The notes: generated from the letters alone by a model not told the origin. 48,037 bases of DNA from an uncultured Eubacteriales bacterium (GCA_964447545.1 CAYUTE010000008.1:1-48037), one strand, 5' to 3'; shown: positions 7,516-34,237, numbered from the stretch's first letter. Numbers and translations: made by a program.

Positions 7516-7533
7516 TAAAGTTTGATTGCTTTT

Positions 7534-8957: not shown

Positions 8958-9341
8958 ATGGGAATTGTTGCAAAAAATAATATAGTTGACGCAAAGGATT
9001 TCAAAGAAAATATTAGTAATGGTCAAGGTTTGTTTATAGTTGACTTTTTTGCCACTTGGTGTATGCCGTGCAAGATGTTGGCTCCGGTTTTGCAGATAAT
9101 GGAAGAAAAATATAGTAATATAAAATTTGTAAAAGTTGATATTGATGAATGCCAAGACTTAGCGCAAGAGTATAGTATTATGTCGGTCCCTACACTTCTA
9201 TTTTTCCGTTCTGGCGAGCTTGTCGGTAGGGAAGTAGGATTTAAATCCGAAGCGGACCTAGATGAAATAATACGCAATGTATTCGGCGATTTTATAGAAG
9301 AATCTCCAAAAAATGTAGAGTCTAATACGTACAGCAAATAA
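8958..9341 (+). CDS. Thioredoxin-fold protein with non-canonical WCMPC active site
   Basis: FFATWCMPCKMLAP...VPTLLFF. ATG at 8958 is preferred over the GTG at 8952 because AAGGGAG lies 7-8 nt upstream. It is followed by trxB. Confidence 0.8.
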   Translation: MGIVAKNNIVDAKDFKENISNGQGLFIVDFFATWCMPCKMLAPVLQIMEEKYSNIKFVKVDIDECQDLAQEYSIMSVPTLLFFRSGELVGREVGFKSEADLDEIIRNVFGDFIEESPKNVESNTYSK

Positions 9342-9373
9342 ACATGAATTTTAATAAGGTTGTGTACTAATTT

Positions 9374-10285
9374 ATGAATACAGATGTTGCCATAATAGGG
9401 GCCGGACCGGCAGGTATAGCCGCAGCTGTTTACGCTCTCAGAGCGGGAGTGTCAGTAACAATTTGCGAGCGAAATATATATGGCGGTCAGACTTCAATTA
9501 TAGAAAATATAGAAAATTATCCTGGAATTAAAAGAATATCCGGTATTGAGTTTGCAAAATCTCTTTATGACCAAGCTAAAAGTTTGGGAGCAAACTTTGT
9601 TTTTGATGAAGTAATAGATTTAAATATTAGTGAGAATTCAAAAGAGATAATTTTAAAGAGTTCAGAAAAACTTATATGCAAATCTATTGTTATATCTAAC
9701 GGACTTAAACGTAGAAAGCTGGGTTGCGAAGGAGAATTTGAATTTTCCGGCAAAGGTGTTTCATATTGTGCTACGTGTGACGGCGCCTTTTTCAAGGGTA
9801 AAGATGTTATTGTAGTAGGCGGCGGTAATACAGCCGTTGCTGATGCGCTTTATCTTTCGAATATTTGTAATAGTGTCACGTTGGTAGTTAGAAAAGATTA
9901 TTTTAGAGCTGAACGATTTTTAACTGAAGCAATAAAAAATAAGAATAATATCAAAATTGAGTTTAAAAGCCGGATTTCTAAAATAATGGGCGATAAAACC
10001 GTAAATTCTGTTATTATAAAGAATGAATTATCAGAAGAATGTGAGAAAAAAATAGACGGAGTTTTTATCGCAATAGGATATAAACCGGATAGTGACATTT
10101 ACAAAAACAAAATAGATATGAATGAGAGCGGCTATTTTGTAGCCGGAGAAGACTGCAAGACTAATGTGCCGGGTGTTTTCGTTGCAGGAGATTGCAGGAC
10201 AAAAGAGTTGAGACAAATAGCGACAGCGGTTTCTGATGGAGCTGTTGCGGGTAATTCTTCGGCAACATGGTGTTTTACTCACTAA
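9374..10285 (+). CDS. trxB: Thioredoxin-disulfide reductase (low-Mr type)
   Basis: FAD motif GAGPAGIAAAVYA, redox CATCDG, second dinucleotide motif GGGNTAVADALYL, and GDCR near the C-terminus. Confidence 0.85.
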   Translation: MNTDVAIIGAGPAGIAAAVYALRAGVSVTICERNIYGGQTSIIENIENYPGIKRISGIEFAKSLYDQAKSLGANFVFDEVIDLNISENSKEIILKSSEKLICKSIVISNGLKRRKLGCEGEFEFSGKGVSYCATCDGAFFKGKDVIVVGGGNTAVADALYLSNICNSVTLVVRKDYFRAERFLTEAIKNKNNIKIEFKSRISKIMGDKTVNSVIIKNELSEECEKKIDGVFIAIGYKPDSDIYKNKIDMNESGYFVAGEDCKTNVPGVFVAGDCRTKELRQIATAVSDGAVAGNSSATWCFTH

Positions 10286-10319
10286 TAAAAATATGATTTT
10301 TCTGTAATAATAAGTATTA

Positions 10320-10368
10320 AACAAAGCAGCCAGTTTAATTATTGGCTGCTTTGTCTTTGTTTGTTTTA
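10320..10368. terminator. Bidirectional terminator between convergent trxB and thrS
   Basis: Perfect 11-bp stem CAAAGCAGCCA/TGGCTGCTTTG (10322-10332 / 10342-10352) with T-rich flanks. Confidence 0.8.
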
Positions 10369-10380
10369 AATATAGTTGGT

Positions 10381-12144: not shown

Positions 12145-12159
12145 GTTCATCTACTCCTT

Positions 12160-12410
12160 CTGTTAAAGTAAAAACACCCTCGGCAAAAGAGTGTTAAACT
12201 CCTTTGTCAAGGGTGCATATATATGCACGGTTCCACCTTGATTTTTAACTTTTAATCCTATTTACGCAAGGATTACGTCGGCACTTACTAAAATTTTCTG
12301 CACCGCAGCTCCGGAGTGGTTTTCGCTTATGCTTCCCATAGAAAACTTTCAGCAGATGTTTTCCTCTCTTGTATGCTTTGCATAAGTTACTCGTTCCATC
12401 ATAGCCTTTT
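12160..12410 (-). promoter_or_regulatory. T-box leader (Thr, ACC specifier) controlling thrS
   Basis: Read on the minus strand: stem I start GATGGAACGAGTA; specifier-loop context GCGAAAACCACTCC, with ACC at 12318-12320 followed by A; T-box motif AATCAAGGTGGAACCGTGC (about 12225-12243); terminator AACACTCTTTTGCCGAGGGTGTTTTTAC just before the thrS SD. Confidence 0.85.
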
Positions 12411-12417
12411 CACATAT

Positions 12418-17764: not shown

Positions 17765-18470
17765 TTTAAGTAGTGATAATAATCTTGTGAATATTTTTAC
17801 ACAGGATATGGGTGTCATTTCAGCTATAGTCCCTTGTAACCGTGGTAGGAACAAAGGGAGGCTTTCTGCACTCTCGGTGTTATCTTATTGCGATTTTTCG
17901 CTTTTTGAGAATCGCTCGGGGTATATTGTTAATGATGCGGAAATTCTTAATGTTTTTTGGAATATAAAGAACGATATAAAATCGTTGACCATATCGCAAT
18001 ATTTATGCGAGTTATGTTTTGCTCTTTCTTGTGAAAACGATTTGTCCCAAGATTTTTTTAGACTTTTTTTAAATTCTCTTTTTTATATTTCAAAAGGTAT
18101 TAAATCTCCGGAATTTGTAAAATTGATTTTTGAAATTAGATCAAGTTCGTTGTGTGGATATATGCCAGACATAGTTTGTTGTGATAAATGCGGGAAATAC
18201 GAAGATGAAAATATGTATTTCGATTTGAAATCCGGCAAGCTCTTTTGTGAAAATTGTGCAAAAGAGTGTGGAGATTTTTGTGTTTCGTTAAGTCTTGGAA
18301 TGGTTAAGGCTTTGCGTCATATTGTTTATTCGCCTATTGAAAAATTGTTTTTATTTAATCTTTCAGAGAAAGCGCTGAAAATCCTGAACGAATTATCTGA
18401 AAAATATATTGTTTACCATGTGCAATCGGATTTCAAAAGTCTGAAATTTTACAACGAGGTATGTTTATAG
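17730..18470 (+). CDS. recO: DNA repair protein RecO
   Basis: MRIKGIVIRK... OB-fold N-terminus and zinc motif CDKCGK...CENC. ATG at 17730 lies 10 nt after GGAGAA. The ORF track begins at a TTG at 17712. Confidence 0.85.
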   Translation: MRIKGIVIRKINLSSDNNLVNIFTQDMGVISAIVPCNRGRNKGRLSALSVLSYCDFSLFENRSGYIVNDAEILNVFWNIKNDIKSLTISQYLCELCFALSCENDLSQDFFRLFLNSLFYISKGIKSPEFVKLIFEIRSSSLCGYMPDIVCCDKCGKYEDENMYFDLKSGKLFCENCAKECGDFCVSLSLGMVKALRHIVYSPIEKLFLFNLSEKALKILNELSEKYIVYHVQSDFKSLKFYNEVCL

Positions 18471-19202
18471 AACCAAATTTATGAGTTTTAATATATTGCA
18501 AGTTAAGAAACACATTATTAAGCCGACGACTGTAGGTAATATAAAAGCTACGATAGTCCACTTTATACTGTTTGTTTCTTTTTTTATTGTTAAACACGTG
18601 GTTCCGCACGGAAAGTGCATAAGCGAAAACATCATTGTGCAAATCGCTGTTATATAAGTCCAGCCATGAGAAACAAGGAGTTCTTTTAATTCAAATAAAG
18701 ATTCTGTTTCCATTATGCTGCCGGTACACATATAGCACATTATTATTATTGGGAATACTATTTCGTTTGCAGGGAACCCCAGTATAAACGCCATTAGTAT
18801 TACGCCATCGAGCCCTATCAATTTGGCAAAAGGGTCTAAAAATTGTGCGCAGTGCATCAGAACGCTTATATCATTTATTTTTATGTTTGCCATAAGCCAT
18901 ATTACTAATCCTGCAGGCGCCGCTACTGCTACCGCTCTGCCTAGCACGAAAATTGTTCTGTCGGCGATTGATCTTATCAGTATTTTGCCTATTTGAGGCT
19001 TTCTATATGGTGGGAGTTCCAATATAAATGATGAGGGTTCGCCTTTAAGCAATGTTACTGATAGTAGTTTTGATGTTAAAAATGTAACCACAAGCCCTAA
19101 AAGTATGAACATTGTGAGTATAGCCGCAGATATAAAAGAGCTGGCTCCTAAAAAATTTGAACCTAAAAAGAACATTGAAATTATTGAAATAAGCAGAGGG
19201 AA
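18465..19202 (-). CDS. feoB: feoB 3' segment (C-terminal membrane part of ferrous iron transporter B); split gene with no start signals of its own
   Basis: The frame is open from 19202 (FPLLISIISMFFLGS...). It contains LELPPYRKP and GFPANEIVFPIIIM, typical of the FeoB C-terminal Gate/nucleoside-recognition region. It continues exactly where the 28950..30386 fragment stops being FeoB-like. No SD precedes the internal Met at 19175. Confidence 0.85.
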   Translation of the reverse strand, partial: FPLLISIISMFFLGSNFLGASSFISAAILTMFILLGLVVTFLTSKLLSVTLLKGEPSSFILELPPYRKPQIGKILIRSIADRTIFVLGRAVAVAAPAGLVIWLMANIKINDISVLMHCAQFLDPFAKLIGLDGVILMAFILGFPANEIVFPIIIMCYMCTGSIMETESLFELKELLVSHGWTYITAICTMMFSLMHFPCGTTCLTIKKETNSIKWTIVAFILPTVVGLIMCFLTCNILKLINLVL

Positions 19203-19220
19203 TACACAGTTTAAACATGG
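19186..19220. other. Left junction (attL-like) of the feoB-intervening segment
   Basis: Plus strand: GCAGAGGG (feoB side), AAT core (19201-19203), then element arm TACACAGTTTAAACAT (19203-19218). Octamer CAGTTTAA is at 19207-19214, 4 nt from the AA core. Confidence 0.6.
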
Positions 19221-19226
19221 AAAGTT

Positions 19227-20567
19227 TTATTTAAAATATATTTTTAATGCTTCTCCATCCCATACGATTTCTTTTATAGTGCTATTTATAAATTCTTGCT
19301 TAATGTTTATTGGAGTTTTATCAAAAAAATCTTCGTGTTTTAAATACGGCATTATTTTTTCTAATTTTTTGCTTTTAGACTGAGATAAAAGTTTTTTAAC
19401 GCAACCGGTGAATACTTCTTTATCGACCTTTACACCGTTAAGATTTTTACATTGGCAAAAATTTAAACCTTTGTATATTTTATTGCTACAAATATAGTCG
19501 AAGCAAAATTTGCTTTTTGTATTTCTGATCTTAGTTAACATTTTGCCACCACATTTTTTGCATTTTATATATCCGGAAAGTATAGAATATTTTTCGGATT
19601 TTTTATTATGGGATTTATTTTTAGATATGTTAGATATGATTTTTTGAGTTTTAATCCAATTGCGCCCCGATATTATTCCGGTGTGTGTTCCAACTGATAT
19701 AATCCATTTTGAGTAATCGTTCGTACTTGCACAGTTTTTTTGATAGTGATATTTATTGTAAGAAAAAACCCCGAATTTATCGCTCCAATTGTTTTCGGTA
19801 AAACATATATCGGCATTTACTTTCTTAAAAAAATTAAAAGCATCTTTGTCTGCGATGCAATAAATAGGGTTGCGCAGTATTTTTTTTATTCCGGTGATTG
19901 AAAAATTCTTTAAGTTTGAATTTGGCTTTTCTAGATATCTTTTTACTTCCGAAAATGATTGTGTTTTAAGAAATATAGAATAAATTATTTTTATGTTGTC
20001 TATTTTTGATTCATCGGTTCTTAGATTAAATTTGTGTTTGACTTTGCCATACGAGTCTTTGGTAGTGATTTTAACCGATTTTAATCCATAAGGTGTTGTA
20101 CCGCCTAGCCACTGGGCGTTTTTAGCAAGCATCATCATGTTGTCTTTTACACGTTCTGCTATTGTTTCTCGTTCTAACTGAGAAAATACTGAAGCTATGT
20201 ACATCATTGCTCTGCCAATTGGGACCGATGTATCAAATTGTTCCTTTATACAAACGAATGATATATTATAAGAAATTAATTTTTCTATTAAATTTGAAAA
20301 ATCATTTATATTGCGACTTATCCTATCAAGTTTATAGCAGATAATATATGAAAACATATTGTTTTTTAAATCAGACATCATTTTTTGAAATCCCGGTCGT
20401 TCTGTGTTTTTCCCAGAAAACCCTTCGTCTTTGTAAATTAATATATCTGATTTTTTCAAGTTTGGTATATGATTAAGAGCGTATTCTTGGCACATATTTA
20501 TCTGGTTTTCTGCCGATTCTCCTTTATCGGTAAATTTGGATTTTCTGCTGTATATTGCAACTTTCAT
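19227..20567 (-). CDS. Large serine recombinase (resolvase catalytic domain + recombinase domain + zinc ribbon)
   Basis: N-terminal IYSRKSKFTDKGESAENQ (catalytic Ser context), YKLDRISRN, GRAMMYIASVFSQLERETIAERV. Zinc ribbon YIKCKKCGGKM...FCQC. 446 aa. Confidence 0.9.
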   Translation of the reverse strand: MKVAIYSRKSKFTDKGESAENQINMCQEYALNHIPNLKKSDILIYKDEGFSGKNTERPGFQKMMSDLKNNMFSYIICYKLDRISRNINDFSNLIEKLISYNISFVCIKEQFDTSVPIGRAMMYIASVFSQLERETIAERVKDNMMMLAKNAQWLGGTTPYGLKSVKITTKDSYGKVKHKFNLRTDESKIDNIKIIYSIFLKTQSFSEVKRYLEKPNSNLKNFSITGIKKILRNPIYCIADKDAFNFFKKVNADICFTENNWSDKFGVFSYNKYHYQKNCASTNDYSKWIISVGTHTGIISGRNWIKTQKIISNISKNKSHNKKSEKYSILSGYIKCKKCGGKMLTKIRNTKSKFCFDYICSNKIYKGLNFCQCKNLNGVKVDKEVFTGCVKKLLSQSKSKKLEKIMPYLKHEDFFDKTPINIKQEFINSTIKEIVWDGEALKIYFK

Positions 20568-20650
20568 TTGCAGATTTGTTCTCCTAATAATAAATATAAC
20601 TAATGTTCTACATCTAGATATATTGTGTTATTTGGCGTTTTTATGCAAAC

Positions 20651-20700
20651 AAATATCCCCACTGCTTTCCGTAGTTTGAATAGCAGTGGATATTGTTTTT
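20651..20700 (-). terminator. Hairpin separating fhs from the recombinase gene (works in either direction)
   Basis: Stem ATATCCCCACTGCT / AGCAGTGGATAT (20653-20666 / 20682-20693) with T-rich tracts on both sides. It lies 31 nt downstream of the fhs stop. Confidence 0.6.
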
Positions 20701-20730
20701 AGATTTTTGTTATAGCTTTTTATTTATTGT

Positions 20731-22398
20731 TTAGAACAGTCCTGAAATTTCTCCGTTTTTATTTATGTCAATGTTTTCGGCAGCAGGGTGTAGTGGAAGC
20801 CCCGGCATTCTTAATATGTTGCCCATAATAACAACTATGTATCCGGCACCATTTGAAAGATAAATGTTTTTTACTGTTACGGTAAAGTCTGATGGTGCTC
20901 CTAATTTTTGTGGGTCGTCAGATAGAGAATATTGAGTTTTTGCTACGCAAATAGGCAAGTTGGTTTTTCCTATATTTTCGATTTTTAATATATCTTTTTC
21001 TGCTTGCGGGGTATAGTATACATCTTTTGCGTGATAAATCTCTTTTGCAACTTTCTCTATTTTTTCTTTAATAGGAATATTAAGAGGGTAGATGGGGGAA
21101 AAGTTTTCCGGCTCATCACAAGCTTTTATTACGTCTTTAGCAAGTTCTTTGCCGCCTTCGCCACCTTTAGCAAACACTTCTGATACTGAAATTTTGCAGT
21201 TTAATTTTTTACAAAGCTCTTTTACTATATTTATTTCATCAGTAGTGTCTGTTTGAAATTTATTTATGGTTACAACAACAGGTACTCCGTATTTTTTCAT
21301 ATTTAAAATGTGCGATTTAAGATTACAAATACCTAATTTAAGAGCTTCTATATTTTCATTCTTTAAATTTTCTAATTTTTCTTTACCGTTGTATTTAAGT
21401 GCTCTTATTGTTGCAACTATAACGATACATGAAGGTTTTAAATCTGCTAATCTGCATTTAATATCTAAAAACTTTTCTGCACCTAGGTCGGCGCCGAACC
21501 CGGCTTCTGTGATGCAGTAATCTCCAAGTTTTAACGCAAGCTTTGTTGCCCTTACTGAATTGCATCCGTGTGCGATGTTTGCAAACGGTCCGCCGTGCAT
21601 TATTACCGGCGACTCTTCGATTGTTTGAACAAGATTTGGCTTTATTGCCTCTTTAAGTAGTGTGGCCATAGCACCTTGTATATTTAAATCTTTTGCATAT
21701 AGAGGATTCCCGCTATAATCATAAGCAATTAAAATTTCCCCAAGTTTTAATTTTAAATCTTCTAAATTTTCTGCCATACAGAGTATTGCCATTATTTCTG
21801 TTGCAACAGTTATTACAAAGCCATCTTCACGTGGGAATCCGTTAATTTCTCCACCAAGTCCTACTACAATATTTCTAAGCGCACGGTCGTTTATATCTAG
21901 ACAGCGTTTTACCAAAATTCTTCGTGGATCTATTTTAATTTTATTTCCTTGATGAATATGGTTGTCTATTACAGCGCACAGAAGATTGTTTGCAGCTGTG
22001 ATTGCATGCATATCTCCGGTAAAATGCAGGTTTATATCTTCCATAGGTAGCACTTGCGAATATCCGCCACCTGTTGCGCCTCCTTTAATTCCAAAAACCG
22101 GTCCTAAAGATGGTTCTCTTAGTGCGATTACGGTTTTTTTACCAAGCGAGTTCAGAGCTTGACCTAATCCTATTGTAATTGTAGTTTTGCCTTCTCCGGC
22201 AGGAGTAGGGTTAACCGCTGTTACCAGTACTAGTTTGCCGTCTTTTTTATTTTTAGATTTTTCAAAAACTTGTTCCGATATTTTAGCCTTATATTTACCG
22301 TAGTTTTCTATATCCTCTGCATAAAGTCCTAGTTTCTCTGCTATTTTAATTATAGGTTTAATATCTGCTTTTTGAGCGATTTCAATATCTGAGAGCAT
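20731..22398 (-). CDS. fhs: Formate--tetrahydrofolate ligase
   Basis: 555 aa. [11 protein letters not shown]..., nucleotide loop [14 protein letters not shown], full-length FTHFS pattern. Confidence 0.95.
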
Positions 22399-22418
22399 AT
22401 CTTATTACCTCCTGAAGA

Positions 22419-23624
22419 TTATTTTAAGAGTTTTTGAATTACCTTGTATATGTTTTTTAAGCAATCTGATTTATCGAATTTTTGACAGTTGAGTTTCATG
22501 GCATTTAGTCTTTTAGGGTCGGTTAATAAATTTTCTATAATCTTTATATCATACTTTCCACCGGTTAATCTAACTGCCATATTGTTTTTTACTAAAAAGT
22601 TGGCGTTTTCTTCTTCTTGGCCCGGTATTGCGTTAAAAAGTGCCATAGGCAAGTTGCAAGCTAATGCTTCGCTTACAGTCAGTCCTCCGGGTTTAGTGAT
22701 TATTAAATCAGATGATTGCATATATTTGCTTACTTCATTTGTAAAGTATATTACTTTGGTCTTTTTACGATTATCTTTATTATCAAAACTCAATTTTTTT
22801 GGTTTTTTTATTAATCTTAATTTTTTTAAATTTAAATGTTTTAGGATGAATTTTCTTTTTTTGATTTCTTCTCCAGAAGCTAGCATACGTATGTTATTAT
22901 ATAATTTTTGGTTTTTGCCGGTTATTATTATTATTTGTACATCTGTTTTTAATGATTGTAATTTTTCATAAATTTCTGCTATGTTTGCAATACCGCCGCA
23001 TCCTGCCATCATCAAAATTGTGGGGACGCCCTGAGAAAACCCTATGCTTTTTAAGACTTCTTCTTTGTTTTTAGGAGAGTGAAAGTCTTCGTTGATGGGT
23101 ATTCCAAACGGATAAATTATTTTTGGATCCACGCCGATTTCTTCCATAGGTTTTATCATTTGATCATTTGCAACTATATAGGCATCGGTTTTATCGTTAA
23201 TCCATGTCCTGTGCGGTGCGTAGTCTGTCATTACGCATACAAGTGGCACAGTTATCTTTCCGGCTGATTTTAAGCTTGAAATCATTTCCGCCGCAAATGG
23301 GTGAGTTACGATTATAATATCCGGATTAAAATCATTAATACTGGGCAATAGCTTTTTACTTATAGTGCCGTTAACAGTAGCAACCAATTTACTTACAGCC
23401 GCTTGGTTATTTGATGTATCATACATTAATTTCCAAAGATGTTTATGGCTTTTGGCTATGTGACCATATATTTCAATAACCGTTTTATTTAATATACGAC
23501 TGATGGTTTCTATGGTGTCTAGCATTTTTACTTCGGCACCATTGTTTTTTAGATATTCGTTTATTGCTTTTGCGGCACTTATATGCCCGCCGCCTGTTTT
23601 AGCTGATAATATAATAACTTTCAC
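22419..23624 (-). CDS. GT28/MGDG-synthase-family glycolipid glycosyltransferase (UgtP-like)
   Basis: N-terminal SAKTGGGH, C-terminal DLIITKPGGLTVSEALA...PGQEEENA. It has a Lys-rich insertion of roughly 35 aa between the two Rossmann halves. GTG start 6 nt after AGAGG. Confidence 0.75.
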   Translation of the reverse strand: MKVIILSAKTGGGHISAAKAINEYLKNNGAEVKMLDTIETISRILNKTVIEIYGHIAKSHKHLWKLMYDTSNNQAAVSKLVATVNGTISKKLLPSINDFNPDIIIVTHPFAAEMISSLKSAGKITVPLVCVMTDYAPHRTWINDKTDAYIVANDQMIKPMEEIGVDPKIIYPFGIPINEDFHSPKNKEEVLKSIGFSQGVPTILMMAGCGGIANIAEIYEKLQSLKTDVQIIIITGKNQKLYNNIRMLASGEEIKKRKFILKHLNLKKLRLIKKPKKLSFDNKDNRKKTKVIYFTNEVSKYMQSSDLIITKPGGLTVSEALACNLPMALFNAIPGQEEENANFLVKNNMAVRLTGGKYDIKIIENLLTDPKRLNAMKLNCQKFDKSDCLKNIYKVIQKLLK

Positions 23625-23625
23625 T

Positions 23626-24573
23626 TTATACCTCTGGAATATTATTATTTTCGCCGAGTATAGTTTTTCCTGTTAGCTTGTTTCCTCTTGTAAAGTCTGC
23701 TGCAGACATACGTTTTTTACCCGCTATTTGAACTTCTTCAAGCTCTAAACTTGTATTATTCCCACAGCCGATAATTAGGGGATTGACGCTTATAATTTGA
23801 CCGGGATTACAAATTCTTTTATCGCTTATTTTAGCTTTATAAATTTTGAAAAGTGTTTTGTTTAATGCTGTATACGCTATAGGCCACGGGTTTAGCCCCC
23901 TTATTAAATTGTTGATTTCAGTAGCAGATTTAATCCAATCTATTTTTCCGAGCGATTTATCTAATGGTGGAGAAAATGTCGCTTCTGACTCATTTTGTTT
24001 TATGCGCTTTATAGTGCCTTGTTCAATCTCCGATATGGTTTTAATAAGAAGGTCTGCGCCTATTTGTGAAAGACGCAATTTTAATTCTTCAGACGTTTCA
24101 TTTTCATATATGGGAGTTTTTTCTTGTAGAAGGATATCGCCTGTATCTAAGCCCTCGTTCATAAACATGGTAGTAATTCCGGTTACGCTGTCGCCATTTA
24201 TTATGCTCCATTGTATAGGCGCTGCTCCTCTATACTTTGGCAAAAGCGAGCCATGGACGTTAATGCAACCGTATTTAGGGAAATCTAATATATTTTTTTT
24301 CAATATTTTTCCGTATGCAACAACTACTATTAATTCTGGATTTAATTTTTTTACTATATCAAAAACTTCCGGGTCTTTCAAATTTTCAGGTTGATAAACT
24401 GCAATACTGTTTTCCTCTGCATAAATTTTTACAGGTGGAGGAGTTATTATCATTTTCCGTCCTTGTGGCTTGTCCGGTTTTGTGAATACTGCGCATATCT
24501 CGTGATTATTTTTTATTAGTGCTTTTAAAGATGGAACTGCGAATTCAGGAGTCCCCATAAAAAGTATTTTCAA
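23626..24573 (-). CDS. fmt: Methionyl-tRNA formyltransferase
   Basis: MKILFMGTPEFAVPSL, HGSLLPKYRGAAPIQWSIING, C-terminal OB-like domain. Confidence 0.95.
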   Translation of the reverse strand: MKILFMGTPEFAVPSLKALIKNNHEICAVFTKPDKPQGRKMIITPPPVKIYAEENSIAVYQPENLKDPEVFDIVKKLNPELIVVVAYGKILKKNILDFPKYGCINVHGSLLPKYRGAAPIQWSIINGDSVTGITTMFMNEGLDTGDILLQEKTPIYENETSEELKLRLSQIGADLLIKTISEIEQGTIKRIKQNESEATFSPPLDKSLGKIDWIKSATEINNLIRGLNPWPIAYTALNKTLFKIYKAKISDKRICNPGQIISVNPLIIGCGNNTSLELEEVQIAGKKRMSAADFTRGNKLTGKTILGENNNIPEV

Positions 24574-24754
24574 ATTTATTTCACCTCAGAGCGTTCAAGC
24601 TGTTTCTTTTGCTTTTTAAAATATATAAATTATGATATTACATTTTAGAAGTATTTTCAATAATCCTGTATGTATAGCCGGTTCTCTATTTATAATAAGC
24701 TCAATATGTGATATAATTATTTTTAGAGTTTTAAAAAAACCGAGGGGGATTAGT

Positions 24755-25822
24755 GTGTTTAAACGTCTTGAAAATATACAAAAAAGATATAATGAAGTTA
24801 ACGAAGCGTTGTGTGATACAAAGATTTTATCTGACCAGCAAGAATATAAAAAATTTATGAAAGAGTATAAAAATCTAACTCCTATAATAGAAAAATACGC
24901 AGAATATAAAAAAGAAGAAGCTAGCGCTCTAGAGGCAAAAGAGTTACTATCGGACAATGATTGTGACAAAGAATTTAAAGATATGGCACAAGCTCAGCTT
25001 GACTCTTCAAAAGAAAATATTCAAAAAATTTCTGAAGAACTTAAAATCTTGCTTTTGCCCAAAGACCCCAATGATGAAAAAAATGTAATTATGGAGATAC
25101 GTGGCGGAGCAGGCGGAGAAGAAGCAGCTTTGTTTTCTAGTGTTCTGTTCAGAATGTATAATATGTATTCTCAGGCTAAACACTGGAAAGTAGAAATTCT
25201 CAATGCAAACGAAACACAGCTTGGTGGATATAAAGAGATAAGTTTTATGGTTTCCGGAGAAGGAGCATATTCAAAGTTAAAATTTGAAAGCGGTGTTCAC
25301 AGAGTTCAAAGAGTGCCTGATACAGAAACTCAAGGGCGTGTTCATACGTCAACGGTTACAGTAGCAGTTTTGCCGGAGGCAGATGATGTTGAAATTGAGA
25401 TAAATCCAAGTGATTTACAAATAGATACATATAGATCCGGCGGAGCAGGTGGCCAACACGTAAATAAAACTGAATCGGCAATAAGAATAACTCATATTCC
25501 TACAGGTCTTGTAGTAGAATGCCAAGATGAGCGCAGCCAGTATAAAAACAAAGATAAAGCTATGAAGGTTCTAAAATCAAGATTACTTGACTTAAAACGT
25601 TCTGAACAAGAATCTGCTGTTGCTCAGGAACGTCGTTCACAAGTTGGAACGGGTGACCGTTCGGAGCGTATAAGAACATATAATTATCCGCAGAGCAGAG
25701 TTACAGACCATAGAATAGGTTTAACACTTTATAGACTTGAAGATGTTCTAAATGGCGATTTAGATGAAATTATTGACAGTTTAATAACAGCGGATCGTGC
25801 AGCAAAACTTGCAGGAAATTAA
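24755..25822 (+). CDS. prfA: Peptide chain release factor 1
   Basis: GTG start 6 nt after GAGGGGGA gives a 355-aa protein starting [15 protein letters not shown]. It has the GGQ motif [12 protein letters not shown] and [14 protein letters not shown]. The ORF-track start at 24632 adds a non-homologous extension. Confidence 0.95.
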
Positions 25823-25851
25823 ATTTATCTATTTGGTGAAAGGAAATAAAT

Positions 25852-26862
25852 TTGAAAACTAAGATTTTAAATTCAAATCAAACGGATATTGCGGCAGATA
25901 TTTTAAAATCCGGTGGATTAGTTGCAATACCGACTGAAACAGTTTATGGTTTGGCCGCAAGCGCATACAAACCGCAGTCTATAAAAAATATTTTTATTGC
26001 CAAAGGTCGCCCTATGGATAACCCTTTAATAGTCCATATCGCTGATATAAAAAATATTTATGAAGTGGTTTCAGAGTTCCATGAAACAGCTCAAAAATTG
26101 GCAGAAAAATTTTGGCCCGGCCCTCTTACTATGATATTACCTAAAAATTCTAAAATCCCAAACGAAGTCTGCGCAGGGCTTAGCTCTGTGGCTGTTAGAT
26201 TCCCATCAAATAAAATAGCTCAAGAAATAATTTTGAAAACGGGAGAACCTCTTGTTGCTCCGTCGGCCAATCTTTCGGGTAAGCCGAGCCCGACCAAGTT
26301 CGAACACGTTTTTGAAGATTTAAATAGTAAAATTGATGCGATTGTAGACGGTGGAGATTGTACTGTGGGGCTTGAGTCAACCGTTGTTTCGCTTTTGGAA
26401 GAAATTCCAAGAATACTAAGACCCGGGGCTATAAGCGCTGACGATATAAAAAACACTGTTGGATGCGTTAAAATTGACGATGCAGTGTTTAAAAAATCAA
26501 AAGCCGGAGAAAAAGTTCTTTCACCCGGAATGAAATATAAGCATTATTCTCCAAAAACTCCGGTAACTATGATTATTAGTAGCGCAGAGAAATATTCCGA
26601 ATTTATAAATTCAAAGAAAAACGATAATATAATAGCACTTTGCTTTAATGAAGACATTCAAAACATAAATGTGCCATATGTATCATATGGAGGGTCTGAT
26701 GACGTTAAAACGCAGGCTCAAAAATTATTTGGTGCGTTAAGAGATGCCGATAAACTTCAAGGAACTCATATTTATGCCCATTATAAGGATGTTAATGGAT
26801 TTAGTGTTGCAGTTTATAATCGGCTGGTAAGGGCTGCGGGATTTGATATTATAAATCTATAA
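25852..26862 (+). CDS. tsaC: L-threonylcarbamoyladenylate synthase (TsaC/YwlC/Sua5 long form)
   Basis: YrdC domain IPTETVYGLAA...SANLSGKPS, plus a Sua5 C-terminal domain. TTG start after GAAAGGAA. Confidence 0.9.
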   Translation: MKTKILNSNQTDIAADILKSGGLVAIPTETVYGLAASAYKPQSIKNIFIAKGRPMDNPLIVHIADIKNIYEVVSEFHETAQKLAEKFWPGPLTMILPKNSKIPNEVCAGLSSVAVRFPSNKIAQEIILKTGEPLVAPSANLSGKPSPTKFEHVFEDLNSKIDAIVDGGDCTVGLESTVVSLLEEIPRILRPGAISADDIKNTVGCVKIDDAVFKKSKAGEKVLSPGMKYKHYSPKTPVTMIISSAEKYSEFINSKKNDNIIALCFNEDIQNINVPYVSYGGSDDVKTQAQKLFGALRDADKLQGTHIYAHYKDVNGFSVAVYNRLVRAAGFDIINL

Positions 26863-26872
26863 GAAAAGGGGT

Positions 26873-27454
26873 GTGTGCAGCATAGATATAAAATCAAAGA
26901 AACGAATAATTAGCTTAGTTTTTGTTTTATCTCTAGTACTTTTTGGATTGATTGTTATATATAAAGGTTCCAAGTCCATATTTAAATATTTTTATCCTAT
27001 AAACTACGAGGATATAGTAACTGAAGCTTCAAATAAGTATGGCGTTGAAAAAGAGTTAATATATGCTATAATTAAGTGTGAAAGCGGATTTGATAAATCA
27101 GCACATTCGCATGCAGATGCGGTGGGGTTGATGCAAATAACCCCAGGAACTTTTAAATGGCTTAGGGATAAATCGAAAGATGATTTAAGCAGCTATTCTG
27201 ATATTTCTGATCCGCGTACAAATATCATGTGCGGAACATATTTGATTTCGTTTTTAAGAAATAGGTATAAAAATTTAGATGTTGCGCTTTGTGCGTACAA
27301 TGCAGGTATTACCACGACTGATAAATGGATTAGAACAAATAAAATATCTAAGGATAATATGGATTATTCTGAAATTCCATATAATGAAACCAAAAATTAT
27401 GTAAAGCGTGTTAAACGTGCCAGAGAGATTTATAAAAAATTATATTTTAGTTGA
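26873..27454 (+). CDS. Membrane-anchored lytic transglycosylase (SLT domain)
   Basis: N-terminal TM, catalytic CESGFD, GLMQI, AYNAG. The start codon is uncertain because the SD is very close to the GTG at 26873. Confidence 0.75.
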   Translation: MCSIDIKSKKRIISLVFVLSLVLFGLIVIYKGSKSIFKYFYPINYEDIVTEASNKYGVEKELIYAIIKCESGFDKSAHSHADAVGLMQITPGTFKWLRDKSKDDLSSYSDISDPRTNIMCGTYLISFLRNRYKNLDVALCAYNAGITTTDKWIRTNKISKDNMDYSEIPYNETKNYVKRVKRAREIYKKLYFS

Positions 27455-27477
27455 TTTTAAAGAAAGGAACTGGATTT

Positions 27478-28881
27478 ATGAACACAAACAAAAATTCAAG
27501 CTCAGAACTTAAAGAAAAACTGTTTTTAAATAAGAAAAACGGTGCAAACCGCATAGGTGAATCAGAACTTAAAAAGAGTTTTGATTTTGCAGAAGGATAT
27601 AAAGATTTTTTGAACACTTGCAAAACAGAAAAAGAATGTGTGCGTTATGCAATTAATGAAGCTAAAAAATTAGGATTTGAAGAATTTGACAGCTCTAAAA
27701 AATATAAAGCAGGAGATAAAGTATATAAAATAAATAGAGATAGAAATATAGTTCTGGCTATTATCGGAAAAGACGGCACCAAAAACGGAATAAATTTAGC
27801 TGTTGCTCATGCCGATGCTCCACGCCTAGACCTTAAGCCAAATCCATTATTAGAAAACAATGAGCTTGCAATACTTAAAACTCATTATTATGGAGGAATT
27901 AAAAAGTATCAGTGGACAGTTCTTCCGCTTTCTTTACACGGCCGTATAGTAAAACGTGATGGAAGCTATGTTGATGTTTGTATTGGTGAAAATGATGATG
28001 AACCGTGCTTTTGCGTGACTGATTTGTTACCACATCTTGCTCGTGAGCAAATGTCTAAAAAGATGTCTGAAGGAATACTTGGAGAAAATTTAAATCTATT
28101 AGTTGGTAGTATTCCATTCGCTGATGCTGAGGGTTCTGAATTAGTTAAGCTCAATATTTTAAAAATATTGAATGATAAATATGGCATAGTTGAAGAAGAT
28201 CTTATATCTTCTGACCTTGAGCTTGTTCCCGCTTATAAAGCTAAAGATTTAGGGTTTGACAGGAGCTTAATTGGGGGATACGCTCACGATGATAGATCTT
28301 GTTGCTACCCATGTTTAAGAGCTATACTAGAGTCTAAAGATCCGAAAAAAACTACTGTGGTCATGTTAACGGATAAGGAAGAAATCGGAAGCGACGGAAA
28401 TACAGGTTCTCAATCTAAGTTTTTAGAGTATTTTATAGCTGACCTAGCAGATCAAGATGGAGTAAATTTACGTGATGTATTGACAAAAACCAAATGTCTT
28501 TCAGCAGATGTAAATGCAGCATACGACCCTACGTACCCTTCAAGTTTTGAACCCGCCAACAGTTCTTATATAAATAGGGGAGTAGTTGTTACAAAATATA
28601 CCGGAAGTGGCGGAAAATACGGGACATCTGATGCTACGGCCGAATTTACCGGTGAGGTCTGCAAGATTTTTAATGATAATGATGTTTTGTGGCAAAGCGG
28701 CGAGCTTGGAAAAGTAGATAATGGTGGCGGCGGAACCATTGCAAAATACATTGCCAATTTGAATGCAGATGTTATAGATGTTGGTGTTCCTGTATTGTCT
28801 ATGCACGCACCGTTTGAGGTGATTTCTAAAATAGATTTATATATGACGTTTAAAGCAATATTCTCATTTTTTAAAGCATAG
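27478..28881 (+). CDS. M18-family aminopeptidase
   Basis: VAHADAPRLDLKP, GYAHDDRSCCY, DKEEIGS, MHAP motifs of M18 aminopeptidases. ATG at 27478 lies 8 nt after AAAGGAA. Confidence 0.8.
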   Translation: MNTNKNSSSELKEKLFLNKKNGANRIGESELKKSFDFAEGYKDFLNTCKTEKECVRYAINEAKKLGFEEFDSSKKYKAGDKVYKINRDRNIVLAIIGKDGTKNGINLAVAHADAPRLDLKPNPLLENNELAILKTHYYGGIKKYQWTVLPLSLHGRIVKRDGSYVDVCIGENDDEPCFCVTDLLPHLAREQMSKKMSEGILGENLNLLVGSIPFADAEGSELVKLNILKILNDKYGIVEEDLISSDLELVPAYKAKDLGFDRSLIGGYAHDDRSCCYPCLRAILESKDPKKTTVVMLTDKEEIGSDGNTGSQSKFLEYFIADLADQDGVNLRDVLTKTKCLSADVNAAYDPTYPSSFEPANSSYINRGVVVTKYTGSGGKYGTSDATAEFTGEVCKIFNDNDVLWQSGELGKVDNGGGGTIAKYIANLNADVIDVGVPVLSMHAPFEVISKIDLYMTFKAIFSFFKA

Positions 28882-28927
28882 GTCTATTAAATGGATCAAA
28901 TATAAAAAATAATTAAATATTAGAAAT

Positions 28928-28959
28928 AAAAGCTCTTAAAATAGGGCTTTTATTTTTTT
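28928..28959 (+). terminator. Rho-independent terminator after the aminopeptidase gene, just inside the right end of the element
   Basis: Stem AAAGCTC/GGGCTTT (28929-28935 / 28944-28950, one G-U) followed by TATTTTTTT. Confidence 0.65.
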
Positions 28960-30386
28960 GCAATATTAAACTGCGCTAATCTGCCGTTGCAAGGAACAAA
29001 ATTATTTGTTAAAAGTGCAATTAATCTTTCTCTTGGCGAATCTATTATTCTGCATCCAATAACGCCACAGGCGTTACAACCAAACCCCATACAAGTGGTT
29101 AGCGCTTGCTTTCCGTGAGCTCCGCATTTATTGAATGAATTATCTAAACTAAAGGCTATTCTTGGCAAATATCCTACGTCTTCCAAGAATGTAAATAGCG
29201 GGAAAAATATGGCCATAGGCGGTAGCATTACTGAAACCACCCAAGCAAGTGTTCTGTACATACCTTCAACAAAAAGGCCGTTAATCCACTGCGGGCAAGA
29301 GTGCGATATTAGAATAGCTGTTAATTTTTCCTGAATATTAAATAGCACCGATGCTATAATTTCAGATGGGTAGTTTGCACCTGATATTGTTATCCAAAAT
29401 ATCCCCATAAGTAGGAGTATCATTATAGGTATTCCTGTTGTTTTGGAGGTTAAAACGTGGTCAATTTTTCTATCTTTTTTGTCATATGATTTGTTTTCAA
29501 TATGTACGCATAATCGGCTTATTTGTTCAGATTTGTTTATTAAAGACTTTACTATGATTTTTTTAATTGATTCTTGAGTTATGTTTTTTTTATTTAAAAT
29601 ATCTTTTTCTGATTCTATTATTTCTTTTACTGACGGATTGGTGTAAATTTCATTAAACTCATTTTTTATTTTTCCCTCTAGTTTTTTATCGTTTTCTAGA
29701 ATTTTAAGTGCGTGCCAGCGTGAGTTTGTGTTTTTTGATATAAAAGGGGAAATCGCAGCAGAAACATTTTCTAAGCAAGAATTTAAAGGGTCTGGATAGT
29801 TTATTGTTGTTCCAAATGTTTTGCGTTTTTTTAGAGCTACATCGTTTACAGCTTGCATAAGTTTTTTTATTCCTTGTTTTTTTCGGGCGTTTGTGTATAC
29901 AACGGGTACTCCAAGTTGTAATGAAAGTTCGTCTAAATCTATATAAATCTTTTTTTTCTTAGCTTCATCGATTAAGTTTACGCATATTACAACGTTTTTT
30001 GTCATTTCTAATATTTGTAAGGCTAAGTTTAGATTTCTTTCTAGACATGTTGCATCCATTACTACTATTATTGCATCTAGGTTTGAAAAACAAATGAAAT
30101 CTCTTGCTATTTCTTCTTCCGGCGAATTAGACATCAATGAGTATGTGCCGGGAATGTCTGTAATTTTAAAAGTATTGCCGTTGTAACAGTATTTTCCTTG
30201 AGCACACTCCACAGTTTTTCCGGGCCAGTTTCCTGTGTGCTGTTTCATGCCGGTAAGAACATTAAATACTGTACTTTTACCAACGTTGGGGTTGCCTGCA
30301 ATGGCAATGTTTTTAAAATTAATATTTTTGATTGTTTTTTTATTAAAATATTTAATTTTAGAAATAGAACTTTTTATAATGTTCAT
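28950..30386 (-). CDS. feoB: feoB 5' segment (G-domain, helical domain and first membrane segments). FeoB homology ends at 28980; the last 9 codons and the stop are element-encoded.
   Basis: G1 GNPNVGKST, G3 DIPGTYSL, NLID, membrane part up to ...RERLIALLTNNFVPCNGR. Then comes a non-FeoB tail LAQFNIAKK and the stop. Confidence 0.9.
   Translation of the reverse strand: MNIIKSSISKIKYFNKKTIKNINFKNIAIAGNPNVGKSTVFNVLTGMKQHTGNWPGKTVECAQGKYCYNGNTFKITDIPGTYSLMSNSPEEEIARDFICFSNLDAIIVVMDATCLERNLNLALQILEMTKNVVICVNLIDEAKKKKIYIDLDELSLQLGVPVVYTNARKKQGIKKLMQAVNDVALKKRKTFGTTINYPDPLNSCLENVSAAISPFISKNTNSRWHALKILENDKKLEGKIKNEFNEIYTNPSVKEIIESEKDILNKKNITQESIKKIIVKSLINKSEQISRLCVHIENKSYDKKDRKIDHVLTSKTTGIPIMILLLMGIFWITISGANYPSEIIASVLFNIQEKLTAILISHSCPQWINGLFVEGMYRTLAWVVSVMLPPMAIFFPLFTFLEDVGYLPRIAFSLDNSFNKCGAHGKQALTTCMGFGCNACGVIGCRIIDSPRERLIALLTNNFVPCNGRLAQFNIAKK
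28962..28995. other. Right junction (attR-like) of the feoB-intervening segment
   Basis: Plus strand: element arm AATATTAAACTGCGCT (28962-28977), AAT core (28978-28980), then the feoB side TCTGCCGTTGCAAGG. TTAAACTG at 28966-28973 is the inverted copy of the left-arm octamer at the same 4-nt distance from the core. Confidence 0.6.
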
Positions 30387-30440: not shown

Positions 30441-30683
30441 TTAAATCTCATAAACTATTATGTCTTTGATGTCATCGTTCCTGAGTGCGATCACTGCTCC
30501 GCGTATTAAGTAAGCAGTTAAATTTTTTGAAGGGTCATTATGTAGAGCTTTAATTTTTGTGCCTTCCACTAAGCCCAAATCCATAAATCTACGCAACAAA
30601 AAATCATCTTTTGCACTAACTTTAATTATTTTATACTCGTGATTGAGTTTGCAATTGTTTAGACGTACAAATATAGTCTTCAA
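30441..30683 (-). CDS. feoA: FeoA-family protein
   Basis: 80 aa, SH3-like FeoA pattern (RRFMDLGLVEGTKIKAL...GAVIALRNDD), directly upstream of feoB. TTG start. Confidence 0.8.
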   Translation of the reverse strand: MKTIFVRLNNCKLNHEYKIIKVSAKDDFLLRRFMDLGLVEGTKIKALHNDPSKNLTAYLIRGAVIALRNDDIKDIIVYEI

Positions 30684-30703: not shown

Positions 30704-30724
30704 CATAATTTTTAACAAATTATG
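30704..30724. promoter_or_regulatory. Perfect 8-5-8 palindrome in the feoAB upstream region (candidate operator)
   Basis: CATAATTT-TTAAC-AAATTATG, 21-41 nt upstream of the feoA start. The half-sites are AT-rich ATAAT-type. Confidence 0.4.
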
Positions 30725-30745: not shown

Positions 30746-30787
30746 CTAAAAAAACAAAACACACACCATAAGTTTGGTATGTGTTTT
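30746..30787 (-). terminator. Rho-independent terminator of the repeat-protein gene, upstream of feoA
   Basis: Minus strand: AAAACACATACC-loop-GGTGTGTGTTTT followed by GTTTTTTT. Confidence 0.75.
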
Positions 30788-30836
30788 GCTGGCTAATTAT
30801 TATATTTAATAATATATTTGCTTATTATTTGTCTGT

Positions 30837-31490
30837 TTAGTCTTCGGTTTCACTTTCACTTGCGCTATCGCTTTTTGAAGTTACTTGGGGTTTAGTTGTT
30901 TCTTTAGGTTGCTCTTCTTTAGGTTGTTCTTCTTTAGGTTGTTCTTCCGTAGGTTGTTCTTCCGTAGGTTGTTCTTCTAGAACAACAGCTGAATCATCAG
31001 CTGAATCATCAAAAAGAGCAGGAAAATGTTTTTTACAATAATCTTTGGTTAACTTCTTAGAAGCTTCTTCATCGGCTTTCATTACCTGATATGCGAACCA
31101 TTGTTCAGTAATTATTCTGTTTGCCCAACGTCCATTGCCGCTTTTTTTGGTTGAATGCAAACGTAAAATTCTGCTTTCGTTTTTTTCAAATATTACTTCT
31201 GGTTCTTGAGTTATTTCACCGGTTTGAGCAAATACTAATTTTTTCTGTACAACAGGTGTTAAACTGCCGTGGGCTACTTGATTCCAACTTTGTGCTGCTT
31301 CTCTTACTTTTTCATCGCTGCTGTGTGCTTTAAACAAATTGAAAACTGCGCGAGGTACGTTAGGTGTGGCTGCAACAACCATAGTAGTTCCTTCTACTGC
31401 GGCTAATGTTCCTATTACTGCTGCAGATATTACTAATGCTGTTGTTCCAACCTTAAATTTTACTGTTTTTACAATATTGGATACTGACAT
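30837..31490 (-). CDS. Hypothetical membrane-anchored protein with C-terminal EEQP(T/K) pentapeptide repeats and an acidic Ser-rich tail
   Basis: It has an N-terminal hydrophobic segment (TTALVISAAVIGTLAAV) and no family I recognise. The second ATG (31490) is preferred, 10 nt after AAGGA. The ORF track starts at 31499. Confidence 0.5.
   Translation of the reverse strand: MSVSNIVKTVKFKVGTTALVISAAVIGTLAAVEGTTMVVAATPNVPRAVFNLFKAHSSDEKVREAAQSWNQVAHGSLTPVVQKKLVFAQTGEITQEPEVIFEKNESRILRLHSTKKSGNGRWANRIITEQWFAYQVMKADEEASKKLTKDYCKKHFPALFDDSADDSAVVLEEQPTEEQPTEEQPKEEQPKEEQPKETTKPQVTSKSDSASESETED
30902..30976. repeat. Tandem repeat, 5 x 15 bp, in-frame (encodes EEQPT/EEQPK)
   Basis: Units CTTTAGGTTGCTCTT / CTTTAGGTTGTTCTT x2 / CCGTAGGTTGTTCTT x2, head to tail. 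Confidence 0.9.
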
Positions 31491-31532
31491 TCTTAACATT
31501 TCCTTTCAAACAAAAATTTGTAAAACAAATTA

Positions 31533-34101: not shown

Positions 34102-34237
34102 GTGTAACTCAACATGCAGCTGAAAGAATTAACCAAATCGCACGGAACATATTGTTTAATGCTGCTCGGTTCCCCGCCTGACATGGTTCACAATCATCCG
34201 TCGCATGGCACCCATTCAACTGCATGTTGAATTACAC
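34102..34237 (-). ncRNA. ffs: Signal recognition particle RNA, small (4.5S-like) type
   Basis: Minus strand carries the domain IV signature GTCAGG-CGG-GGAA-CCG-AGCAGC at the tip of a long hairpin. The hairpin is closed by a 23-bp stem (GTGTAATTCAACATGCAGTTGAA / TTCAGCTGCATGTTGAGTTACAC, two G-U). It lies immediately upstream of dnaX, as in many Firmicutes. A TATAAT sits about 8 nt upstream of the stem. The ends are approximate. Confidence 0.75.

Follow-up and report, generated by a model that had tools for sequence, protein, structure and literature searches.

A candidate skin-like intervening element splits the iron-transporter gene feoB in a spore-forming gut Clostridium

We analyzed a stretch of DNA of 48,037 nucleotides (GCA_964447545.1, CAYUTE010000008.1:1-48037; here called the window) from an uncultured Eubacteriales bacterium, a spore-forming gut Clostridium, in which the iron-transporter gene feoB lies in two colinear pieces on the minus strand. 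The pieces are separated by a segment that holds a gene for a large serine recombinase (LSR), placed directly beside the C-terminal piece of feoB, and a seven-gene block of host genes that occupies the remaining 8.2 kb and that we refer to as the cargo. The positions of these genes, of the two putative attachment (att) sites at the ends of the segment, and of other features of the window are collected in Table 1. A preliminary description of the locus had proposed that feoB is a split gene that is kept repairable by site-specific excision of this segment. Here we examine the two gene pieces, the cargo, the recombinase, and the attachment sites and compare them with related loci and with known systems.

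Table 1. Features of the window (L093 and L095 are contigs of related lineages, described in the text)
Feature	Position	Strand	Remarks
T-box leader	12206-12411		Upstream of the threonyl-tRNA synthetase gene
feoB, C-terminal part	18465..19202	minus	245 codons; FeoB_C and second Gate domain; stop at 18465
Putative attR	19176..19227	minus	Element arm ...TTTAAACTGTGTA, TT core (19202-19201), feoB arm CCCTCTGCTTATT
Intervening segment	19203..28979		9,777 bp; LSR gene and seven-gene host block
LSR gene	19227..20567	minus	446 aa; 24 bp from the feoB C-half junction; R8/S10, recombinase domain, and zinc-ribbon cysteines intact
Hairpin	20659..20689	minus	CCACTGCT...AGCAGTGG and T-rich run; between fhs and the LSR gene
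Formate-tetrahydrofolate ligase, fhs (cargo)	20731..22398	minus	Family matches
MGDG-synthase-type glycosyltransferase (cargo)	22419..23624	minus	Family matches
Methionyl-tRNA formyltransferase, fmt (cargo)	23626..24573	minus	TIGR00460, above cut-off
Peptide chain release factor 1, prfA (cargo)	24755..25822	plus	Equivalog above cut-off; 81-82% identical to L093 and L095; start codon approximate
L-Threonylcarbamoyladenylate synthase, TsaC/Sua5 (cargo)	25852..26862	plus	TIGR00057, above cut-off
SLT-domain lytic transglycosylase (cargo)	26873..27454	plus	Domain match
M18 aminopeptidase (cargo)	27451..28881	plus	70% identical to L093, 77-79% to L095
Foreign tail of the N-half	28950..28979	minus	LAQFNIAKK and stop, nine codons; encoded by the P' arm of the attachment site
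Putative attL	28953..29004	minus	feoB arm GGCAGA, TT core (28979-28978), element arm AGCGCAGTTTAATATTGCAAAAAAAT
feoB, N-terminal part	28980..30386	minus	469 codons; G domain, helical domain, first Gate domain; ends ...NNFVPCNGR; TIGR00437 positions 1-403
feoA	30441..30683	minus	First gene of the feoAB operon; Pfam FeoA recorded for identical product
SRP (signal recognition particle) RNA	34119-34217		Upstream of dnaX-ybaB-recR
tRNA-Pro(GGG)	47243-47319

The minus-strand open reading frame (ORF) 30386..28950 reads as FeoB up to ...LLTNNFVPCNGR, with the last feoB codon ending at 28980, and the truncated product then ends in the tail LAQFNIAKK and a stop. The C-terminal frame, open from 19202, begins FPLLISIISMFFLG... 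(also given as FPLLISIISMFF...) and shows neither a start codon nor a Shine-Dalgarno sequence of its own upstream of codon 10. Deleting positions 19203-28979 in silico, with 28980 joined to 19202, gave one feoB ORF of 714 codons (469 + 245) that is in frame and has a single terminal stop. The fused protein of 714 aa matched FeoB proteins of 707-722 aa with 60-70% identity over 96-100% of its own length. The NCBIfam feoB model TIGR00437 is divided between the two pieces, with positions 1-403 found in the N piece and positions 415-594 in the C piece. FeoB was unbroken over the split point in all of the top 120 homologues of the fused protein, and the motif CNG[RK][FL]P reads across this point in 82 of the 82 uninterrupted feoB loci that we fetched (CNGRFP in 76 of them). 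Because of the in-frame fusion, the complementary coverage of the model, the full-length matches, and the contiguity in 82 loci, the two pieces are complementary parts of one gene and not paralogues. On each of these points (the reading of the N-half and its tail, the open C-terminal frame, the complementarity of the halves, and the restoration of the gene by removal of exactly 9,777 bp) our results agree with the preliminary description. The placement of the junction needs a small qualification: the length of 9,777 bp is exact, but the boundary can be moved by 0-3 nt since ATT is common to both junctions.

A scan of GTDB with the fused FeoB gave a best 80 loci that were all uninterrupted; split loci would rank lower in such a scan, which for this reason could not reveal further split cases. 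The closest relatives with an intact feoB (L001 and L002; 70% identity) differ from the window in synteny, precluding a direct comparison of recO-feoB-feoA. The convergent 3' ends of feoB and recO overlap by 6 nt in the window (18465-18470).

Annotation of the 9,777 bp with Pfam and NCBIfam found no phage, conjugation, or replication genes among the genes of the segment. The G+C content of the segment is that of its flanks, so composition gives no signal, and no long direct repeats flanking the segment were found, which agrees with a crossover of 2 bp. In relatives at ∼70% identity, L093 (a 652-kb contig) and L094, all seven genes recur with order and orientation unchanged; there the block sits between spoIVB-spo0A and a gene of the PBP5 (penicillin-binding protein 5) type, with no recombinase or feoB nearby. 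Identity between the cargo of the window and these copies ranges from 51 to 81%, as for FeoB and fmt homologues generally, and the divergence of the cargo from the window equals that of host genes. Since the block is syntenic elsewhere in relatives and has diverged as much as host genes have, the cargo is native DNA from the lineage's own core chromosome, neither foreign extra copies nor a prophage remnant. Neither recombinase remnants nor att-like sites were found beside the block in L092, L093, or L094. In relatives, a gene for a vanY-type D-Ala-D-Ala carboxypeptidase lies between prfA and fmt (9188-9962 in L093; 5400-6011 in L095); the window has lost vanY, and a divergent intergenic region of ∼180 bp remains at 24574-24754.

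The recombinase has a Resolvase domain (PF00239; E value, 2.5e-34) followed by Recombinase (PF07508) and Zn_ribbon_recom (PF13408) domains, the latter two above their cut-offs. It retains all of the residues that do not vary among 88 homologues (R8, S10, D81, R82, R85, and the four zinc-ribbon cysteines among them), and it matched the catalytic domain of TP901-1 integrase with an E value of 7e-19. The top Foldseek matches of its AlphaFold2 model (mean predicted local distance difference test score [pLDDT], 82.6) were the Bxb1, PhiC31, and LI integrases. The nearest named phage integrases are those of Terrisporobacter phage TPELB_ph1 and Clostridium phages HM T and CP51 (∼41% identical). Among NCBIfam models, the best match was XisF (NF041201), which at 114.3 bits against a cut-off of 375 is below the equivalog threshold, while CcrA, CcrB, and CcrC matched weakly (70-101 bits against cut-offs of 700-900). 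Exact look-ups of the window LSR and of the 236-aa C-half ORF gave no match.

The LSR is without the coiled-coil motif of its longer homologues. In the alignment, a gap of ∼95 aa falls exactly where 541-aa homologues carry the motif, and the model has short helices only between residue 394 and the terminal hairpin, with no long helical hairpin. The same deletion is found in the recombinases of L095, L096, and P0206, and the nearest relatives of the LSR by sequence motifs (P0187, P0175, and P0206; genomic context was fetched for two) are also short. In studied integrases the coiled coil promotes synapsis of attP with attB and blocks that of attL with attR until a directionality factor intervenes, and in A118/LI and PhiC31 it is reported as needed for recombination as such. 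A conserved clade that lacks the coiled coil, with no factor gene nearby, suggests re-tuning for unassisted excision, and we infer that the LSR may be an excision-only or direction-blind enzyme that is under its own promoter and needs no directionality factor. The gene has its own ribosome-binding site (AGGAGA), as do the recombinase genes of the other lineages, and the hairpin that precedes it, which has analogues before the LSR in L095 and L096, probably insulates it.

We noted three further points about this family and its neighbors. In L095 (845-1012), a small acidic ORF of 45-55 aa without a family match separates attL from the aminopeptidase gene; the window has no counterpart of this ORF, which could, as a weak candidate, encode an accessory or directionality factor of the L095 lineage. 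The coiled-coil-less P0138 (456 aa) and the full-length P0376 (541 aa) share one cluster at 90% identity, so that loss of the coiled coil has also been recent and independent elsewhere in the family. P0138 and another coiled-coil-less recombinase, P0150, have unrelated genomic contexts and were set aside.

On the minus strand, attR reads ...GTTTAAACTGTGTA-TT-CCCTCTGCTT, and the element arm of attL is near-identical to that of L095 (ACCGCAGTTTAAAATAGCAAAAAAAT). The bases common to both junctions are ATT, the TT core is conserved in three lineages, and the crossover dinucleotide is likely TT at 28979-28978 and 19202-19201. The predicted attB junction is CAACGGCAGATTCCCTCTGC (also written CCTTGCAACGGCAGATTCCCTCTGCTTATT), and the predicted attP junction is AAACTGTGTATTAGCGCAGTTT (also written GTTTAAACTGTGTATTAGCGCAGTTTAATA). 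The rebuilt attP, TTAAACTG-TGTA-TT-AGCG-CAGTTTAA, contains a perfect 8-bp inverted repeat that is symmetric about TT, and when junction pairs were taken at random from the window, a run of that length arose at a frequency of 2.5e-4; in attP of L095 the corresponding repeat spans 9 bp, and 12 of 14 positions are complementary. The attL and attR sites are in direct orientation 9.8 kb apart. Such an anatomy is to be expected where a serine integrase acts through a 2-bp crossover. The attB site is a strongly conserved coding segment (TT in 77 of 82 loci), which makes the feoB site an integration hot spot. The sole non-coding single nucleotide polymorphism (SNP) between the window and L088, a contig from another sample, is at 19204 in the element arm of attR, 2 nt from TT (T to C on the minus strand), and raises the dyad symmetry of the rebuilt attP.

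The same split is present in two other lineages. In the 78-kb ENA contig L095 (LSR, ∼52% identical), the N-half of feoB ends at the same codon as in the window (...NNFVPCNGR-TT-ACCGCAGTTTAAAATAGC...), and the arm encodes a tail that begins LPQFKIAKK. It is followed in order by genes for the M18 aminopeptidase, the SLT transglycosylase, sua5, prfA, vanY, fmt, the glycosyltransferase, fhs, and the LSR, and the other end reads ...TAAACTGCGCT-TT-CCCACTA..., which is the C-half of feoB. L095 and the window thus have the same split codon and TT core, homologous arms, and the same cargo order, and their N pieces are 64% identical. The third lineage is represented by a Logan contig and an NCBI contig (L096/L097; LSR, ∼52% identical), in which the LSR is joined through TT to the C-half of feoB at the same codon. 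Downstream of this C-half are recO, era, DAGK, ybeY, and yqfD, in synteny with the window. The C-half of L096 is open over 248 codons and is 68-69% identical to that of the window, and its junction with recO is equally tight.

Both halves of feoB and the LSR are under purifying selection. Between lineages, the proportions of synonymous (pS) and nonsynonymous (pN) differences were 0.68 and 0.20 for the C-half (dN/dS, ∼0.13) and 0.73-0.74 and 0.22-0.32 for the LSR (dN/dS, 0.09-0.15). These values can be set beside those of the neighboring genes era (pS, 0.72; pN, 0.23; dN/dS, 0.11) and recO (pS, 0.63; pN, 0.33; dN/dS, 0.31) and of the cargo gene fhs (pS, 0.73; pN, 0.19; dN/dS, 0.08). For the N-half, pS was saturated at 0.76 (pN, 0.25), and dN/dS was not computable. 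From base composition we estimated that a random codon at 33% G+C is a stop at a rate of ∼7%, which gives a probability of ∼1e-8 for 245 codons to stay open; at the divergence seen here, such a stretch would have filled with stops had it not been selected. Within the species, SNPs in the split feoB comprised 7 synonymous and 3 nonsynonymous changes, where the synonymous-site fraction is 0.22. Degraded halves in relatives that have the same split, which the preliminary description had named as evidence to the contrary, were not what we found, as the halves in L095 and L096/L097 are open and under purifying selection.

A stretch of nine codons that separates the junction from the first ATG of the C-half (codon 10) is informative in this respect. 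Across the three lineages these codons have synonymous changes at five positions and a nonsynonymous change at one. The ATG itself is kept in all three lineages, with no Shine-Dalgarno sequence and no conserved upstream start before it. Because change is nearly all synonymous and there is neither a Shine-Dalgarno sequence nor an upstream start, these codons would be translated only as part of the fused protein. The recombinase with its attachment sites, the halves in relatives, the SNPs, and these pre-ATG codons together support the earlier proposal of a split gene kept repairable by excision over that of a decaying pseudogene. Further, because the window and L095 share cargo order, arms, and coiled-coil deletion and yet have saturated synonymous sites in the recombinase and cargo, the split arrangement is old. 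A single ancient insertion would be the parsimonious explanation.

A scan of IMG/VR with an alignment of the recombinase clade yielded two informative loci, and both have a recombinase element at the same feoB site. In the first, L099 (IMGVR_UViG_3300029498_000050, 1-12414), a 541-aa LSR that has the coiled coil and is 51% identical to that of the window lies at the end of an element with genes for a phage-type single-stranded DNA-binding protein, ParA/ParB, a MazG-like enzyme, two DNA methyltransferases, and an IS110 transposase. The insertion is at the same feoB codon (...GGTGGCGCA-TT-CCCCACACTC), the C-half is open, and groEL is downstream. In the second, L098 (IMGVR_UViG_3300012083_000064, 208-3680), one feoB has two recombinase elements. 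The arm of a 538-aa LSR is joined to ...NNFVPCNGR-TT in an orientation opposite to that of L099, which therefore implies an attP with a flipped core. The other LSR of L098, a protein of 546 aa that has a DUF4368 tail, stops 10 nt short of feoB codon ∼429, at a site 41 codons upstream of the first. The CNGR/FP site of feoB is a recurrent integration hot spot that phage-like elements use too. The view that fits the window element best is that it descends from such feoB-targeting integrative elements and has become fixed and stripped down, with a phage origin inferred from the recombinase family and L099 only. In this history, a phage-type element targeting CNGR/FP would have become fixed in an ancestor of the lineage and would then have been reduced to the recombinase gene and the two attachment sites, and its original cargo would have been replaced by the core block of fhs, the glycosyltransferase gene, fmt, prfA, tsaC, and the genes for the SLT transglycosylase and M18 aminopeptidase.

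We favor, with moderate confidence, the reading of this locus as an old, domesticated, skin-like intervening element in feoB that would be excised, probably in the sporulation mother cell. Within this reading, the rebuilding of feoB by excision is probable, while its timing to the sporulation mother cell is proposed tentatively and by analogy. In the inherited state, feoA and the N-half would be transcribed up to the stop and a hairpin inside attL. The recombinase would then bind attL and attR, cut both at the central TT, and exchange strands, releasing a nonreplicating circle of 9,777 bp and leaving an in-frame feoB of 714 codons. Because the circle carries prfA, tsaC, and fmt, which are expected to be needed for growth, excision would be tolerated only in a terminal, nondividing cell; the likeliest such cell would be the sporulation mother cell, with the forespore keeping the split copy. 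The preliminary description had pointed to sporulation genes in the window, and we identified YqfD there, along with YabP, Spo0A, and SpoIVB in relatives.

To our knowledge, the gene-intervening elements known in Firmicutes split sporulation genes and are phage relics, and we know of no described programmed rearrangement of the kind proposed here for feoB. The closest parallels are skin in sigK of Bacillus subtilis (recombinase SpoIVCA) and skinCd of Clostridioides difficile, which similarly involve a gene split in the germline, an LSR gene at one end of the element, a spore-forming host, an exact ORF that excision would restore, and a vertically inherited, degenerate descendant of an integrative phage. 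Vertical inheritance of the split with selected halves is evident here from L095, L096, the dN/dS of ∼0.13, and the SNPs. The feoB element is unlike them in that its target is an iron transporter and not a sporulation sigma factor, its cargo is seven core, probably essential housekeeping genes and not phage remnants, and its LSR has no coiled coil and no directionality factor (Skr in the skin system, CD1234 in that of skinCd). The SPbeta element in spsM (SprA/SprB) and the gerE, spoVFB, and spoVR elements of Bacilli are also bounded by a serine recombinase, interrupt a gene, and are removed precisely. These are functional or decayed prophages of 10-130 kb with a factor under sigma-E/sigma-K, and the genes that they interrupt act in the mother cell; the feoB element, in contrast, has no phage genes and no candidate factor, and feoB is not known to act in the mother cell. 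The fdxN element of heterocystous cyanobacteria is likewise excised from a gene in a terminally differentiated cell by a serine recombinase, XisF, which needs XisH and XisI. However, the LSR is not an orthologue of XisF (114 bits against 375), and the phylum and cell type differ.

Other systems resemble the locus in single respects. In active lysogeny (phi10403S in Listeria comK, SpyCIM1 in mutL), excision from a non-sporulation gene restores its function, but those elements are phages or phage-like episomes that, once excised, persist or replicate and then re-integrate, whereas the feoB segment has no replication or phage genes and carries core genes. The L099-type phage element has the same recombinase family, feoB codon, and TT core, but it combines a 541-aa coiled-coil LSR with phage genes, in contrast to the 446-aa coiled-coil-less LSR and host genes only of the window. 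TnpX of Tn4451, TndX of Tn5397, and CcrAB of SCCmec are also large serine recombinases, and they excise a circle without a separate directionality factor. Unlike the feoB element, theirs are mobile, carry accessory cargo, and restore no split host gene, and our LSR scores far below the Ccr cut-offs. With these comparisons in mind, the skin-type feoB element has three unusual traits: an iron-transporter target, a core and probably essential cargo, and a conserved LSR that lacks the coiled coil.

It is important to note that several observations weigh against this interpretation. The main mechanistic uncertainty is the coiled-coil-less LSR, which could be inactive or could work in an undescribed way. 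No candidate for a directionality factor was found, as the 9,777 bp hold no unassigned ORF outside the eight genes, and a search upstream of the LSR in three lineages for promoters of the sigma-E/sigma-K type returned weak, nonconserved matches only. As far as we know, no mother-cell role has been described for feoB, which encodes a general ferrous-iron transporter. A perfect palindrome (CATAATTT-GTTAA-AAATTATG) at 30704-30724, between a strong terminator (30753-30790) and feoA, lies over the likely feoAB promoter; it looks like a metal-regulator operator, with the canonical 7-1-7 spacing of a Fur box absent, and suggests ordinary metal regulation. Searches for the excision products were negative in the collections scanned: the fused attB 30-mer and the P' arm each had 0 matches in JGI metagenome contigs, where the organism is probably absent; a degenerate attP pattern had 0 matches in IMG/VR, and the fused 714-aa protein and two strain variants had none by exact look-up, results of little weight as the organism is probably absent there too.

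The comparison among lineages also includes points that do not fit easily. L096 has unknown ORFs, not fhs, beside the LSR, which may be leftover element genes or a later insertion, so that either the cargo varies or an insertion occurred there. In L096 1-2476 (and in the same region of L097) we counted three such ORFs, two of 225 and 259 aa and a third cut by the contig end, and none had a Pfam or PHROG match. Further, the cargo genes of the window, of L095, and of the unsplit L093 differ from one another to about the same extent; the block may have moved into feoB once, or the unsplit lineages may have lost the arrangement. Lastly, the cargo genes are presumably single-copy, a view limited to the 48-kb window.

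The alternative that survives best, although we consider it unlikely, is a reversible switch in growing cells resembling the active lysogeny of comK, by which part of the population would turn feoB on, for instance when iron is limiting. Without a coiled coil and a directionality factor the enzyme could be bidirectional, and both the operator-like palindrome, which suggests vegetative, metal-responsive expression of the operon, and the lack of a sporulation-type promoter found before the recombinase are in keeping with such a switch. It would nevertheless be costly if frequent: prfA, tsaC, and fmt are on a circle that lacks replication functions, so that a division before re-integration would leave a daughter cell without these genes.

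A plain disruption is, in our judgment, quite improbable. Here, feoB-targeting elements would have inserted independently and fairly recently, leaving feoB inactive and its halves too young to have decayed. That CNGR/FP is a recurrent target, hit by the phage-like element of L099 and by two different recombinase elements within one feoB in L098, favors this view, and the failure to find the excision product is in keeping with it. The elements of the window and L095, however, have no mobility, replication, or phage genes and carry only host core genes, and they share cargo order, att arms, and coiled-coil deletion despite the saturated synonymous sites of recombinase and cargo. The 7:3 ratio of synonymous to nonsynonymous SNPs, which arose within an already split species, also speaks against an inactive gene.

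We regard as very unlikely a two-piece transporter, whose halves would be made separately and would assemble into a working FeoB, with the recombinase a relic or in another role. Purifying selection on both halves and the ATG conserved at codon 10 of the C-half in all three lineages are what such a protein would lead one to expect, but no lineage has a Shine-Dalgarno sequence before this ATG, and the nine preceding codons, which could not be translated from it, keep their protein sequence while changing at synonymous sites. Moreover, conservation extends to the recombinase with its catalytic residues and to the att dyad, and the motif interrupted by the split is unbroken in all other FeoB proteins examined.

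There is next to no chance that the split is an assembly artefact, that is, a contig chimeric at 19.2 kb or 28.98 kb, which the preliminary description had listed among the findings that would argue against its proposal. The window is a metagenome-type assembly, but an independent Logan contig from another sample (L088) spans the recombinase/feoB-C junction at attR with 99.5% identity (9 mismatches in 1,813 bp). The same junctions recur in other species and in contigs made by different assemblers: the ENA contig L095, which belongs to another species, holds both junctions and the whole segment, and the Logan and NCBI contigs of the third lineage (L096/L097) reproduce attR. Misassembly is effectively refuted by these independent contigs, and inversion is excluded, as the halves are colinear.

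If the interpretation of a skin-like intervening element is correct, this would be the first such element to target a non-sporulation gene in Clostridia and the first natural large serine recombinase working without a coiled coil. Confirmed excision would extend developmental genome editing in spore-formers beyond sporulation genes. The element would have swapped phage DNA for housekeeping genes, yet it has been kept over long evolutionary time, and essential genes on the excised DNA suggest a simple locking route by which an element becomes impossible to lose. It is possible, although on balance doubtful, that the full account holds, in which a domesticated, coiled-coil-less, factor-free recombinase removes 9.8 kb of core DNA (with prfA, fmt, and tsaC) from the mother-cell genome and rebuilds an iron transporter, while the essential cargo acts as a lock that makes loss from the germline lethal and keeps the split fixed. 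A coiled-coil-less LSR under selection in at least three lineages (four by sequence) bears on direction control in serine integrases and hence on their use in genome engineering. The attL, attR, attP, and attB sequences are all defined and are testable in Escherichia coli. For annotation, split feoB calls in metagenome-assembled genomes of gut Clostridia are not all pseudogenes, and the site is a hot spot.

The remaining features of the window are the T-box leader, the SRP RNA, and the tRNA gene listed in Table 1, which are ordinary. Upstream of feoA, a 220-aa ORF on the minus strand (30837-31499) has no Pfam match and ends in a tail of EEQP(T/K) repeats. Comparison of the window with the Logan contig L089 showed a cluster of indels and substitutions at 30833-30949, which suggests that the repeat length of this ORF varies between strains.

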